This document shows, one piece after another, positions 42,354 through 44,973 of a stretch of 64,000 nucleotides of DNA. A program made the translations under genes and the position numbers. Source of the DNA: a virus (lineage: Duplodnaviria; Heunggongvirae; Uroviricota; Caudoviricetes); the IMG/VR virus record IMGVR_UViG_3300028585_000514; one strand, given 5' to 3'. The notes beneath the pieces were generated by a model. The model was given only the letters and a program-made list of their open reading frames with translations, was not told where the DNA came from and ran no database searches. Numbering within the stretch: the first letter of the stretch is position 1; each line of letters starts with the position of its first letter.

Positions 42354-42432
42354 TGGTACCCGTGGACGGATTCGAACCGACACATGAACTGCGTTTGAGG
42401 CAGCCGCCTTCTTCCAATTGGGCTACACGGGC
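42354..42432 (-). tRNA. tRNA, anticodon read as CAA, but type I (short variable arm); CCA encoded; identity uncertain
   Basis: Hand-folded: acceptor GCCCGTG/CACGGGT, anticodon stem GCTGC/GCAGT with loop CTCAAAC, T-arm GTCGG-TTCGAAT-CCGTC (one mismatch). Confidence 0.5.
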
Positions 42433-42445
42433 ATTGTAAAGTATT

Positions 42446-42541
42446 TGGCGGAAGATGTGGGATTCGAACCCACGAGGCGTCTTTTGGACACCTTCACTCC
42501 TTAGCAGGGAGGACCAATCAACCAGGCTCTGGCAATCTTCC
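42446..42541 (-). tRNA. tRNA-Ser(GCT), type II, CCA encoded
   Basis: Acceptor GGAAGAT/ATCTTCC, anticodon loop CTGCTAA, long variable arm, T-arm GTGGG-TTCGAAT-CCCAC. Confidence 0.75.
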
Positions 42542-42549
42542 GTAATGTT

Positions 42550-42642
42550 TGGCGGAGAGCGAGGGACTCGAACCCCCACACCCATTGCTGGGCCTTCTGC
42601 TTTCGAGGCAGCTGCCGCTATGCCGATTCGGCTAAGCTCTCC
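42550..42642 (-). tRNA. tRNA-Ser(CGA), type II, CCA encoded
   Basis: Acceptor GGAGAGC/GCTCTCC, anticodon loop CTCGAAA, long variable arm. Confidence 0.75.
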
Positions 42643-42736
42643 GTATATGACATCAGGTACCGTCGCAAAGCGCCCATTTAAGGGGTGACCATGGCTGCGG
42701 ATGTGTACACTATCCATCGTTTGCTTACTGATGTCA

Positions 42737-42816
42737 TGGAGTCCCCGGCCGGAATCGAACCGAAAAAGCATCTCTTGTTTTGCAGACAAGCGGATGAACC
42801 ATTCTCCCACAGGGAC
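42737..42816 (-). tRNA. tRNA-Cys(GCA), CCA encoded
   Basis: Acceptor GTCCCTG/CGGGGAC (one G-U pair), anticodon stem CTTGT/ACAAG with loop CTGCAAA. Confidence 0.6.
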
Positions 42817-42830
42817 TTAGATTGTATTGC

Positions 42831-42925
42831 TGGCGGAGACGGAGGGACTCGAACCCCCACACCCACTTCCGTGAGCCCTCTGTTTTCAAGACAGCTGCCG
42901 CTATGCCGATTCGGCTAACGTCTCC
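42831..42925 (-). tRNA. tRNA-Ser(TGA), type II, CCA encoded
   Basis: A paralog of 42550..42642. Anticodon loop CTTGAAA. Confidence 0.75.
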
Positions 42926-42931
42926 GTAATT

Positions 42932-43099
42932 TTAGTCGCACTCGTCGACTAGTTCGAAATCGCCTGCTTCGAGGTTGTCGATTGCTTTGTTGATTGCTGC
43001 TTCAACTTGATCAATCGTGGCGTTTGGGTTGGTACCAGGGAAAATACTGCGAACAGTAACGCCACGTGGTTTCAATCGTTCATTTAATTCGGTCAACAT
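42932..43099 (-). CDS. hypothetical small protein between tRNAs (55 aa)
   Basis: MLTELNERLKPRGVTV…. The upstream part of the track ORF overlaps a tRNA. Confidence 0.4.
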   Translation of the reverse strand: MLTELNERLKPRGVTVRSIFPGTNPNATIDQVEAAINKAIDNLEAGDFELVDECD

Positions 43100-43117
43100 A
43101 AAGTTCTCCATAAAGTT

Positions 43118-43208
43118 TGGCGGTGATGGTGGGATTCGAACCCACGGACCCATTTCCGAATCGCTACCTTTCCAGGGTAGTACCTTAAACCAACTCAGCC
43201 ACATCACC
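43118..43208 (-). tRNA. tRNA-Ser(GGA), type II, CCA encoded
   Basis: Acceptor GGTGATG/CATCACC, anticodon stem CTACC/GGTAG with loop CTGGAAA. Confidence 0.75.
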
Positions 43209-43240
43209 GTAGGATGCGGAGTTAACCGCATCGTTGTATC

Positions 43241-43597
43241 TTAGGTCGTATGATCACCGATCGACACAGGCAATTTCAAAGTCGATTGGAGAGTCATTAG
43301 AACTTTTAGGACTTCTTCTTTCGAAGCAGTCAAGCGCAATTCCGTGCCGCTTGGGTTTGAGCTCGTGAACATATCTTTCACGGCACTGATGGCTTTGTCA
43401 CCAACAGCGTCAAAAATATTTCCGATGTCATCAACCCAAAGACGCAGTTCGATTTGGTCGCCTTTGGTAACAATCATGCCGACCGCTTGATCACGGAAAA
43501 TGACATGGTTATCCAACGACTTCGAAAGTCTCGCGGAAAGTTGTTCTTCGGTTTTCAAACCTGCTTCCATCAGCATTAGTTCTTTGATTAGGTTCAT
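43241..43597 (-). CDS. hypothetical protein
   Basis: A 118-aa ORF. Confidence 0.55.
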   Translation of the reverse strand: MNLIKELMLMEAGLKTEEQLSARLSKSLDNHVIFRDQAVGMIVTKGDQIELRLWVDDIGNIFDAVGDKAISAVKDMFTSSNPSGTELRLTASKEEVLKVLMTLQSTLKLPVSIGDHTT

Positions 43598-43647
43598 TGC
43601 AATTCCTATGTTATGTTATTGGATGAATTATTTATAGCATCATAACA

Positions 43648-44025
43648 TCACATGACAGATTCAGGATCAAGTTGCAATTTTCTGCCGATCGCTTGTTGCA
43701 TCACGACTAGAACTTGTGCCATCTCTTGTTTGGAACCTGAAATCACTCGACCATCTTTTGTTATCTGGTTATCGCGTGAATTTTCAAATTCCTTAGCCAT
43801 CTTGTTCCACACTGCAGCACCAAACGTAGCACGAATGTCGCGGTCGTAACCGTGAAGTTCTAGTGCATTGCCTCTGGTGAAGAAAGCAGCGATGACAACA
43901 TCAGTCTTCGCTTCGTGGACCATGATTAGGCCATTGCGTTTCGAAAGAATGTCTTTCTCAATATCAGCTCGCGTTAGCAAGTCTGTTGAAGGAGTAAACT
44001 CCATAATCAAATCACTTAGTCTCAT
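43648..44025 (-). CDS. hypothetical protein (start MRLSDLIME)
   Basis: The internal Met is preceded by AAGATTTATATG. Confidence 0.5.
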   Translation of the reverse strand: MRLSDLIMEFTPSTDLLTRADIEKDILSKRNGLIMVHEAKTDVVIAAFFTRGNALELHGYDRDIRATFGAAVWNKMAKEFENSRDNQITKDGRVISGSKQEMAQVLVVMQQAIGRKLQLDPESVM

Positions 44026-44061
44026 ATAAATCTTCCGGTTGGTTGTGGAAGTATTTATCGC

Positions 44062-44136
44062 TGGCATCCCGCACGAGAGTCGAACTCGTCTTTATAGAGT
44101 GAAAGTCTATTGTCCTAACCGATAGACGAACGGGAT
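44062..44136 (-). tRNA. tRNA-Glu(TTC), CCA encoded
   Basis: Acceptor ATCCCGT/GCGGGAT, anticodon stem ATAGA/TCTAT with loop CTTTCAC, T-arm ACGAG-TTCGACT-CTCGT. Confidence 0.7.
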
Positions 44137-44142
44137 AATGTT

Positions 44143-44247
44143 TGGTGTAGCATCCGGGAATCGAACCGCGGTAGGTCTAAGGAATCTGCAGCTCCCATGG
44201 ACATCGACATCACTGGCCGCGCTGGCTCCATACCAGCCTAATACTAC
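44143..44247 (-). tRNA. 105-nt tRNA-like gene with a ~30-nt internal insertion and a bulged T-stem; CCA encoded
   Basis: Acceptor GTAGTAT/ATGCTAC pairs, and the D-arm GGCT-GGTATGG-AGCC is canonical. The T-arm CCGCGG-TTCGATT-CCCGG has one bulged C. I could not fold the anticodon region. Confidence 0.4.
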
Positions 44248-44248
44248 A

Positions 44249-44332
44249 TGGTGGGTTGTGTAGGAGTCGAACCTACTGACCAGAGGTCACGGGGTTACAG
44301 CCCGCTGCAGTCACCAATGCTGCTCACAACCC
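44249..44332 (-). tRNA. tRNA-Tyr(GTA), long variable arm, CCA encoded
   Basis: Acceptor GGGTTGT/ACAACCC, anticodon stem GCGGG/CCCGT with loop CTGTAAC. Confidence 0.7.
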
Positions 44333-44344
44333 ATATTGTTGTTT

Positions 44345-44426
44345 TGGTGTACATGGTTGGAATCGAACCAACTCAGCCGAAGCCACTGCTTTACAGGCAG
44401 CTTATCTCTCCAAGGATTGCACGTAC
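44345..44426 (-). tRNA. tRNA with a GTA anticodon (Tyr-like), long variable arm, atypical D-arm
   Basis: Acceptor GTACGTG/CATGTAC, anticodon loop CTGTAAA, T-arm GTTGG-TTCGATT-CCAAC. Confidence 0.55.
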
Positions 44427-44429
44427 ATA

Positions 44430-44521
44430 TGGTGGACGCGGTAGGACTCGAACCTACACAGTCTTATTTGGTTGCGGGAGGGTTACAGCCTCTTGAGCTC
44501 TAGCCAGTGCTCAGCACGTCC
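44430..44521 (-). tRNA. tRNA with a GTA anticodon (Tyr-like), long variable arm
   Basis: Acceptor GGACGTG/CGCGTCC, D-arm GAGC/GCTC, anticodon loop CTGTAAC, T-arm TAGG-TTCGAGT-CCTA. Confidence 0.6.
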
Positions 44522-44532
44522 ATATTATTGTT

Positions 44533-44616
44533 TGGCATCGCATGGGGGACTCGAACCCCAGTCGTGAGACGTCACCTTGAAAGGGTGATGACGGTTACCG
44601 GCCGTCAACATGCGAT
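44533..44616 (-). tRNA. tRNA with a TTC anticodon but a long variable arm (identity uncertain)
   Basis: Acceptor ATCGCAT/ATGCGAT, D-stem TGAC/GTCA, anticodon stem TCACC/GGTGA with loop CTTTCAA. Confidence 0.5.
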
Positions 44617-44626
44617 GTAGTTGCGT

Positions 44627-44701
44627 TGGTATCGCCGAGGAGAATTGAACTCCCGTCTGAAGCTTGAAAGGCTTCCGTCCTAACCATTAGACGACGGCGA
44701 T
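44627..44701 (-). tRNA. tRNA-Glu(TTC), CCA encoded
   Basis: Acceptor ATCGCCG/CGGCGAT, anticodon stem GAAGC/GCTTC with loop CTTTCAA. Confidence 0.7.
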
Positions 44702-44712
44702 ATTGTTTGTGT

Positions 44713-44800
44713 TGGCAGGTGAGGTAGGATTCGAACCCACGTGAACTTTCGTTATCGGTTTTGGAGACCGACGCAATCGACCGAACTATGCGACTCACCT
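44713..44800 (-). tRNA. tRNA with anticodon read as CCA (Trp-like) but a long variable arm; identity uncertain
   Basis: Acceptor AGGTGAG/CTCACCT, anticodon stem TCGGT/ACCGA with loop CTCCAAA. It shares 1 nt with the next tRNA. Confidence 0.5.
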
Positions 44801-44876
44801 GGTGGGGATGACAGGACTCGAACCTGCAACATCTACTCTCTCGAAGTAGCGCGTCTACCAATTGCGCCACATCCCC
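44800..44876 (-). tRNA. tRNA, anticodon loop TCGAGAG (anticodon GAG if 7-nt loop, C at position 33); type I
   Basis: Acceptor GGGGATG/CATCCCC, D-arm GCGC-AATTGGTA-GACGC, T-arm GCAGG-TTCGAGT-CCTGT. Confidence 0.5.
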
Positions 44877-44894
44877 ATATTGAAGAATTTCTTC

Positions 44895-44973
44895 TGGTAC
44901 CCTCGGTCGGATTCGAACCGACACATGACTACGTTCTAAGCGTAGCGCCTACTACCAATTGGGCTACGAGGGC
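44895..44973 (-). tRNA. tRNA with a TAG anticodon but type I (short variable arm); paralog of 42354..42432
   Basis: Acceptor GCCCTCG/CGAGGGT, anticodon stem CTACG/CGTAG with loop CTTAGAA, T-arm GTCGG-TTCGAAT-CCGAC. Confidence 0.6.

Follow-up and report, generated by a model that had tools for sequence, protein, structure and literature searches.

The DNA analysed here is a stretch of 64,000 nucleotides (nt) from a virus of the Caudoviricetes (IMG/VR record IMGVR_UViG_3300028585_000514), referred to at its full length as the window. Its positions 42354-44973 hold a dense array of transfer RNA (tRNA) genes, in which an earlier note, made by hand-folding, had seen unexpected pairings of anticodon and variable arm: short-arm (type I) tRNAs with leucine anticodons, and long-arm tRNAs with the anticodons TTC and CCA. 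These genes and their class switches are real and conserved, and the identity marks of the Leu and Trp tRNAs agree with their anticodons.

The tRNA array

Genes were called on the whole window with ARAGORN, at default settings with drawn cloverleaves and in a relaxed run (-ps90), and with the Rfam covariance models for tRNA and tRNA-Sec, down to E<=10. ARAGORN places 17 tRNA genes in the window, every one on the minus strand, and the CCA end is encoded in every gene of the array (Table 1). The three short-arm tRNAs with the Leu anticodons CAA, GAG and UAG are found at default settings and score 51-57 bits with Rfam. Both long-arm tRNAs, with TTC and CCA, are called by ARAGORN; only the CCA gene is matched by Rfam, the UUC gene (44533-44616) giving no match even at E<=10. 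The four tRNA-Ser isoacceptors read by hand (GCT, CGA, TGA and GGA) are confirmed as type II by ARAGORN. The three GTA and three TTC copies are also borne out, the third GTA gene being an ARAGORN call only at the relaxed threshold, with a weak match to the Rfam tRNA-Sec model (29.5 bits, below threshold). The automated calls reproduce every anticodon read by hand, and no re-registration of any anticodon loop restores a normal concordance of anticodon with type I or type II structure. Because the non-canonical combinations are real, the hand-folding error that the earlier note had allowed for is refuted. Two other readings were tried and rejected: UCA for the long UUC tRNA would need a C.A mismatch in the stem, and CGA for Leu(GAG), by way of a 9-nt loop, would break the U-A closing pair.

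Both arm classes exist for one anticodon, since Leu(CAA) is short in the main array and type II in the two genes of a second array. The short copies of Leu(UAG) and Leu(CAA) share 85% identity and, to judge by this, are recent duplicates with a change of anticodon. Alignment pairs the two type II Tyr genes with both Tyr genes of Ralstonia phage RsoM2USA as orthologues, so the Tyr duplication is old and has been maintained. Codon usage in the window is ordinary (GAA 67%, UGG 1.45% of codons, all six Leu codons present) and gives no sign of recoding. ARAGORN at default settings finds no suppressor or tRNA-Sec anticodon (CUA, UUA, UCA) in the window. A tRNA-Sec identity was rejected, as there is neither a UCA anticodon nor an 8/5 fold; the sub-threshold Rfam tRNA-Sec matches sit on one Ser and one Tyr gene. 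A search for intron-containing tRNAs (ARAGORN with introns, low threshold) returned noise only, and in a promoter and terminator scan the matches were not more frequent than in shuffled sequence.

Table 1. Predicted tRNA genes of the main array and of the second array, with coordinates in the window; bp, base pairs; numbers after A, C, G and U are tRNA positions
Feature	Position	Strand	Evidence and length
tRNA-Leu(UAG), 6-nt variable loop, A73, encoded CCA	44895..44973	-	ARAGORN; Rfam tRNA 56.7 bits; 79 nt
tRNA-Leu(GAG), 5-nt variable loop, A73, C33, loop UCGAGAG	44800..44876	-	ARAGORN; Rfam 55.6 bits; 77 nt
tRNA-Trp(CCA), 14-nt variable arm AAC-GAAA-GUU, A1-U72, G73	44713..44800	-	ARAGORN; Rfam 51.7 bits; RNAfold cloverleaf; 88 nt
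Canonical tRNA-Glu(UUC), 4-nt variable loop, U11-A24, U13-G22	44627..44701	-	ARAGORN; Rfam 65.8 bits
8/4-fold tRNA(UUC), variable-arm hairpin, 8-bp acceptor, 6-bp D stem, 4-bp T stem, G73	44533..44616	-	ARAGORN, RNAfold; 84 nt
Third tRNA-Tyr(GUA), ~20-nt variable region, weakly supported	44430..44521	-	relaxed ARAGORN; alignment; 92 nt
tRNA-Tyr(GUA), type II, orthologue of RsoM2USA Tyr_a	44345..44426	-	ARAGORN, alignment
tRNA-Tyr(GUA), type II, orthologue of RsoM2USA Tyr_b	44249..44332	-	ARAGORN, alignment
Canonical tRNA-Glu(UUC), G73	44062..44136	-	ARAGORN, Rfam
tRNA-Ser(GGA), type II, G73	43118..43208	-	ARAGORN, Rfam
tRNA-Ser(UGA), type II, G73	42831..42925	-	ARAGORN; Rfam 32-34 bits
tRNA-Cys(GCA), 9-nt variable loop, U73	42737..42816	-	ARAGORN, Rfam
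tRNA-Ser(CGA), type II, G73	42550..42642	-	ARAGORN, Rfam
tRNA-Ser(GCU), type II, G73	42446..42541	-	ARAGORN, Rfam
tRNA-Leu(CAA), 6-nt variable loop, A73	42354..42432	-	ARAGORN; Rfam 51.0 bits; 79 nt
Conventional type II tRNA-Leu(CAA), A73, second array	29006..29089	-	ARAGORN, Rfam
Conventional type II tRNA-Leu(CAA), A73, second array	30889..30973	-	ARAGORN, Rfam

Short-arm leucine and long-arm tryptophan tRNAs

The long variable arm, the hallmark of class II tRNAs, is absent from all three short Leu genes, which have variable loops of 6, 5 and 6 nt. Each of the three carries A73, U8, A14, A15, G18G19 and a U at the last position of the variable loop. Leucyl-tRNA synthetase (LeuRS) of E. coli relies on A73, A15-U48, G18G19 and D/T-loop contacts; it can dispense with the anticodon and the long arm, and armless constructs are still charged (identity review PMC9976931). 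The window genes would then be leucine tRNAs minus the long arm, probably charged by the LeuRS of the host.

Such genes are found well beyond the window. BLAST of the short Leu(UAG) against deposited phages returned many annotated tRNA-Leu genes of 75-81 nt in unrelated phages (Sinorhizobium phage Phosso, Streptomyces Karimacvirus, Pseudomonas phages, T5-like Salmonella phages and the huge phage LR745206). In an alignment of 10 short phage Leu tRNAs, comprising the window Leu(UAG) and nine others, U8, A14, A15, the U48 equivalent and A73 are invariant. IMG/VR and GTDB assemblies were scanned with a Leu(UAG) pattern, CTTAGAA-N10-30-GGTTCGAATCC, that allows a variable region of either length class, short or long. 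Among the IMG/VR matches listed there are 92 distinct ARAGORN genes, 70 short and 22 long, and 67 of the 70 short ones have A73, as do 25 of 25 short Leu genes in another survey. The GTDB matches listed comprise 54 short and 20 long genes; 41 of these 54 lie in loci with at least four tRNAs per 8 kb or less, and 12 of these 20 are solitary. Taken together, the BLAST search, the alignment and the two surveys make short-arm tRNA-Leu a common feature of phage and array tRNAs, with its Leu identity elements intact. Of the Leu(UAG) genes in the viral and array sequences sampled, more have the short arm than the long one. The premise that bacterial tRNA-Leu is always type II, from which the earlier note had started, fails in phage and tRNA-array genes; a major review gives the opposite rule for the arm class of Leu.

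Solitary short-arm Leu(UAG) genes of 75-77 nt with A73 are also kept in chromosomal contigs of Pseudonocardiaceae, outside arrays (survey loci L421, L423, L427, L433, L451, L458, L475 and L479), and type I tRNA-Leu may for this reason also be a cellular gene. The Leu(GAG) gene of the window has C33 in place of the near-universal U33. Of 34 distinct phage Leu(GAG) genes, 5 share its loop UCGAGAG, and among 2946 sampled phage tRNAs 81 have C33. An exact 38-mer of the window gene has no match in IMG/VR. At position 44800 the gene overlaps its neighbour by one base, the first A of tRNA-Trp being the last A of the CCA end of tRNA-Leu(GAG).

The converse change is seen in tRNA-Trp. Here the class I variable loop of 4-5 nt is absent, and a 14-nt arm stands in its place, its 3-bp stem capped by a GAAA loop. 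The CCA anticodon is combined with G73, A1-U72, G2-C71 and G3-C70; of these, the anticodon, the discriminator and the first pair are named as identity elements of bacterial Trp (identity review PMC9976931). The gene would thus be a tryptophan tRNA plus a 3-bp GNRA-capped hairpin. For a survey, IMG/VR was scanned for CTCCAAA and then for a T loop at long distance, and the loci were re-called by ARAGORN, giving at least 103 long tRNA-Trp genes with at least 77 distinct sequences. Among the matches listed, G73 is present in 73 of 77 distinct genes, and at pair 1-72 there are 34 with A-U and 28 with G.U (together 62 of 77). The variable regions of the matches listed measure 11-19 nt and contain hairpins of at least 3 bp in 79% of cases, against 23% after shuffling, with GAAA loops in 31 tRNAs.

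The surveys also caught long-arm tRNAs for other amino acids. Their discriminators, among the matches listed, are C73 in 10/11 His, U73 in 5/5 Cys, G73 in 5/5 Asn and A73 in 10/11 Lys genes, and A73 throughout in Met, Ile, Arg and Pro. Serine-identity tRNAs would show G73 or U73 throughout; as the discriminators track the anticodon, the extra arm is an addition to tRNAs that otherwise keep their cognate marks. Annotated short Leu and long Lys or Pro genes occur in the cultured phages Phosso, Karimacvirus, XacN1, Ruegeria V10 and RsoM2USA. Xanthomonas phage XacN1 and Ruegeria phage V10 have a tRNA-Lys(CUU) with A73, 87-88 nt long, whose arm again consists of 3 bp and a GAAA loop, and RsoM2USA has an 89-nt tRNA-Pro with C1-G72 and A73. 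Near the long-arm tRNA-Lys of XacN1 lie two adjoining 76-nt genes annotated "tRNA-Sup" (11477-11635).

In the sampled sequences long-arm Trp, Glu, Lys, His, Asn, Gln and other tRNAs recur beside canonical copies. Related arrays (LR745206, which is survey locus L009, and L379, L384, L397, L400, L411 and L413 among others) have long/short pairs for single anticodons, with lengths in nt of 90/73 for Arg(UCU), 87-95/76 for Asn(GUU), 87-89/75 for Gln(UUG), 88/76 for Lys(UUU) and 97/75 for Ile(GAU). They contain further long copies for Pro(UGG), 90 nt, and Cys(GCA), 91 nt.

The 8/4 tRNA(UUC) family and the phage context

The minimum free energy fold of the long UUC tRNA (RNAfold) is an 8/4 cloverleaf, with an ensemble frequency of 0.40 and z of -2.7. 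A single linker base joins its 8-bp acceptor to a D stem of 6 bp, whose 7-nt loop contains GG; then come a 5-bp anticodon stem with the loop CUUUCAA, a variable arm of ~10 nt (3 bp plus a 4-nt loop) and the 4-bp T stem GGGG/CCCC. A family-specific pattern matched 7 loci in IMG/VR and 40 in metagenomes, and several of these lie on contigs of 350-424 kb. With the window copy included, the family has 27 distinct members, which all fold to the same cloverleaf, with a D stem of 5-6 bp and a 7-nt loop, an anticodon stem of 5 bp and a variable stem of 3-4 bp. In their alignment 97.1% of cells are paired, and 16 of the 27 pairs have changed on both sides, in 118 cells. Covariation amounts to 0.513, compared with 0.163 when shuffled and at most 0.114 with partners slid, and is seen in 6 of the 8 acceptor pairs and in pairs of the variable stem. 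The fourth D-stem pair is U.G in 21/27 members; as discriminator, 15 members have A, 9 have U and 3 have G.

In nearly every array an 8/4 member accompanies a canonical 75-nt Glu(UUC), often adjoining it and often near Tyr genes, as in the window. RsoM2USA has at the matching place a tRNA, Glu78, with a 7/5 fold and a similar D and anticodon arm, which is the positional counterpart of the window UUC tRNA. The adjacency to Glu and the position of Glu78 suggest that the 8/4 family descends from tRNA-Glu, and the long UUC tRNA would be the descendant of a tRNA-Glu paralogue, in a conserved phage family, beside the canonical tRNA-Glu.

As far as the proteins of the window place it, the array is that of a jumbo phage whose distant relatives include RsoM2USA and several huge phages that are uncultured. 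A PrkA-like protein is ~60% identical to the RsoM2USA homologue and to those of uncultured phages of 630-640 kb. Exact-protein matches lead only to the same genome, found in several metagenomes at up to 348.5 kb; megablast found no near-identical or close relatives among deposited phages, and the proteins embedded in the array were orphans in homology searches.

Three further elements lie outside the called genes. Between the Tyr and Glu genes, a tRNA-like remnant of 112 nt at 44137-44248 (-) ends in A+CCA and shows an acceptor-like stem of 9 bp, a D-like hairpin and a GGTTCGATTCC motif; it lacks a cloverleaf and is called by neither ARAGORN nor Rfam. A 94-nt element between tRNA-Ser(CGA) and tRNA-Cys (42643-42736, -) is closed by a 9-bp stem, TGACATCAG/CTGATGTCA, with an unexceptional folding energy (z -1.0). 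Near the second array, 29190-29271 (-) is a degenerate tRNA with the anticodon CAG, a class-I-type D arm, 5/7 acceptor pairs and no CCA end, which scores 31.6 bits with Rfam and is seen by ARAGORN only when the threshold is relaxed.

Elsewhere in the window, RNA-repair-type genes on the minus strand (17478-18674, 20629-21228, 22046-22444, 22447-22935 and 26113-26784) resemble those for a CCA-adding enzyme, HAD_SAK_2, 2H-SAK, a PTH2 peptidyl-tRNA hydrolase and an AlkB-like 2OG-Fe(II) oxygenase, with an RMF-like gene near 20396-20596. Unusual phage cargo is found at 10323-15884, 693-2255 and 8440-9204 (-): a PrkA/DUF444/SpoVR triad, a nicotinamide phosphoribosyltransferase and a SIR2-family gene. 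The S8-peptidase genes at 33067-34617, 35823-37373 and 49296-50924 (-) are three paralogues of 516-542 amino acids (aa), and each follows a gene of ~290-300 aa. A small PEP-CTERM-domain gene (51891-52301) hints at an exosortase-bearing host.

Interpretation and comparison with known systems

The array is best explained, with a probability that we put at roughly 0.6, as a set of structurally distinct copies of cognate tRNAs, in which the class of the variable arm has been switched while the elements that specify the amino acid were kept, possibly so that the copies escape host nucleases. The same codons would be served by differently shaped pairs or trios: Leu(CAA) by short and long copies, Glu by a canonical and an 8/4 tRNA, and Tyr by tRNAs with three different arms. 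We infer cognate charging by the enzymes of the host. The purpose would be continued translation when defence or toxin nucleases cut tRNAs by shape, variable loop or anticodon loop, the differently shaped phage copy escaping the cut. Precedent exists in the tRNA-Tyr of SP15 and T5, which escapes by means of a longer variable loop; deletion or replacement of this loop abolishes escape (PMC12673091, PMC13096335). Anticodon-loop variants have been proposed to escape likewise (eLife, 2023). The tRNA repair-type genes of the window (CCA-adding enzyme, 2H-SAK, HAD_SAK_2 and PTH2) can be cited for an anti-defence role.

Several points weigh against this reading. We know of no nuclease that selects tRNA-Leu, tRNA-Trp or tRNA-Glu by the variable arm, and for that reason the anti-defence step is offered as a hypothesis. 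In the Septu study, both host and T6 tRNA-Tyr were cleaved. The synthetase rules applied are those of E. coli and may not be those of the host; the survey patterns are tied to particular loop sequences, and the proportions they yield are samples, not censuses. The search pattern for the 8/4 family fixed the T stem and acceptor pairs 7 and 8, which are invariant for that reason. The eighth acceptor pair (G-C) consequently rests on base-pairing logic, in that U49 cannot pair with C65 in a 7/5 reading. [quoted passage not shown] The D-helix rule is met by both canonical Glu genes of the window. The UUC tRNA has U34 U35 C36 A37 of the GluRS set and is without U11-A24, U13-G22 and the gap at residue 47, having G-C pairs there and the ~10-nt variable arm. 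With these determinants lacking, charging with Glu is doubtful, and the tRNA may possibly have an altered or lost Glu identity.

Altered identity had been raised by the earlier note for the odd tRNAs in general. It would make the long Trp and/or UUC tRNAs serine acceptors like the allo-tRNAs, with Ser at UGG or at GAA/GAG, or have the short Leu tRNAs charged by another synthetase, as deliberate recoding or mistranslation; we regard this as improbable. The Leu and Trp tRNAs speak against it, as their acceptor-end and core elements match the anticodon, an agreement repeated in hundreds of independent phage tRNAs, codon usage is ordinary and no stop anticodon is present, and only for the long UUC tRNA does the idea stand as a possibility. 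G73 plus an extra arm, two serine features common to the long-arm Trp and UUC tRNAs, count in its favour and against cognate copies, as do the missing GluRS determinants and the 8/4 fold with long D stem that the UUC tRNA shares with allo-tRNAs, which put Ser at Leu codons in E. coli (PMC5389517). However, the variable stems have 3 bp, compared with 5-7 bp in the four tRNA-Ser of the phage itself, and of the G1-C72 and G2-C71 pairs conserved in bacterial tRNA-Ser only G2-C71 is kept, in Trp, pair 1-72 being A-U in both long-arm tRNAs and 2-71 being U-A in UUC. Moreover, the discriminators of long-arm His, Cys, Lys and Asn follow the anticodon, those of the 8/4 family are not serine-like and suit Glu, and a canonical Glu gene adjoins the UUC tRNA. 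A narrower variant, very improbable in our estimate, holds that the 8/4 family is not Glu at all: the amino acid would be Ser or some other one, or the charging enzyme would be encoded by the phage, leading to deliberately ambiguous decoding of GAA/GAG or poisoning of host translation while the canonical neighbouring Glu decodes normally.

The odd copies might also serve outside translation: chiefly the 8/4 UUC and the 92-nt Tyr would be decoys or sponges for tRNA nucleases or toxins, or regulators, with no need of charging. That the UUC tRNA keeps its anticodon stem-loop while losing synthetase determinants fits such a role, as does the canonical copy that accompanies it in nearly every array. 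Overexpressed phage tRNA-Tyr partly shields host tRNA-Tyr from Septu (PMC13096335), and some irregular tRNAs are charged yet unused in translation (PMC5389517). The explanation is nevertheless unlikely, given that 27 members have kept the cloverleaf, G18G19, the T loop and the encoded CCA and show compensatory acceptor changes, as expected of a molecule that is aminoacylated and fits EF-Tu and the ribosome. We give a similarly low weight to neutral drift, with an array that merely supplements codon usage and arm changes that are tolerated accidents. E. coli LeuRS does tolerate loss of the arm, the phage uses all the codons concerned, and arrays grow by duplication, as in the two short Leu copies that are 85% identical. 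Yet in the viral sample most Leu(UAG) genes are short (70/92 listed), and short Leu is clustered in dense arrays, whereas solitary chromosomal Leu(UAG) is mostly long; the long arms form structured hairpins with GNRA caps, the 8/4 family shows covariation in its variable-stem pairs, and long/short pairs per anticodon recur in many arrays. Structured and covarying arms, the short-Leu majority and the recurrent pairs argue for selection rather than drift.

Phage tRNA arrays, redundant isoacceptors and 8/4 Ser/His tRNAs in phages (PMC5389517) are already known, and GenBank carries annotations of single short Leu and long Lys genes. In the open-access papers searched, neither the 8/4 tRNA(UUC) family nor a class switch that is general among phage tRNAs was found described, nor was there anything specific on phage short-arm tRNA-Leu or long-arm tRNA-Trp. 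The array of the window is typical of a pattern that is widespread, and is no unique recoding device. The idea that tRNA shapes diversify for defence escape is directly testable with these genes, and the 8/4 tRNA(UUC) family and the short Leu scaffolds may serve as orthogonal tRNA chassis.

Among known systems, the tRNA array units of bacteria, plasmids and mycobacteriophages (PMC4758250, PMC5966550) are dense and rich in redundant isoacceptors, as is the window, and among the matches listed the short Leu(UAG) of genome assemblies lies mostly within such units. The class of the variable arm of array tRNAs is not discussed in the searched text of PMC4758250. The 8/4 tRNA-Ser and tRNA-His are known in bacteria and phage tRNA clusters (Mukai et al., 2017, PMC5389517). 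With allo-tRNAs the window UUC tRNA shares the 8-bp acceptor and 4-bp T stem, the extra arm, the long D stem and a non-serine anticodon. However, allo-tRNAs have a tRNA-Sec-like D arm with a tetraloop, a lengthened anticodon stem and G73 or U73, whereas the UUC family has a 7-nt D loop with G18G19, a 5-bp anticodon stem, a 3-4-bp variable stem and mostly A or U as discriminator, and in the window the acceptor is Glu-like (U2-A71) and a canonical Glu lies adjacent. The type I tRNA-Leu of animal mitochondria and minimalist E. coli tRNA-Leu constructs are likewise armless yet leucylated, through A73 and A14/core; in contrast to the mitochondrial tRNAs, the phage genes keep the full D/T-loop core and an encoded CCA, and they occur in bacterial viruses, not organelles. 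The nematode nev-tRNAs, one group among the eukaryotic tRNAs with a non-canonical V-arm, which Hamashima and colleagues are said to have described in 2016, reportedly combine an extra arm with anticodons for class I amino acids, and a Leu identity at odds with the anticodon. The extra arm and class I anticodon are shared with the window, whose discriminators and first pairs, however, agree with the anticodon.

The closest parallel is offered by defence-resistant phage tRNAs (T5/SP15 tRNA-Tyr against Retron-Eco7 PtuAB, T6 tRNA-Tyr and Septu, T5 tRNA-Lys and PARIS), which likewise lie in phage arrays. Several copies per anticodon are common to both, with three Tyr of different arms in the window, as are unusual loops, represented there by C33 in Leu(GAG). 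In those systems the variable loop has been shown experimentally to be the point of attack and of escape, whereas the window displays, in its genes alone, a switch of class, by which Leu has become armless and Trp and Glu armed.

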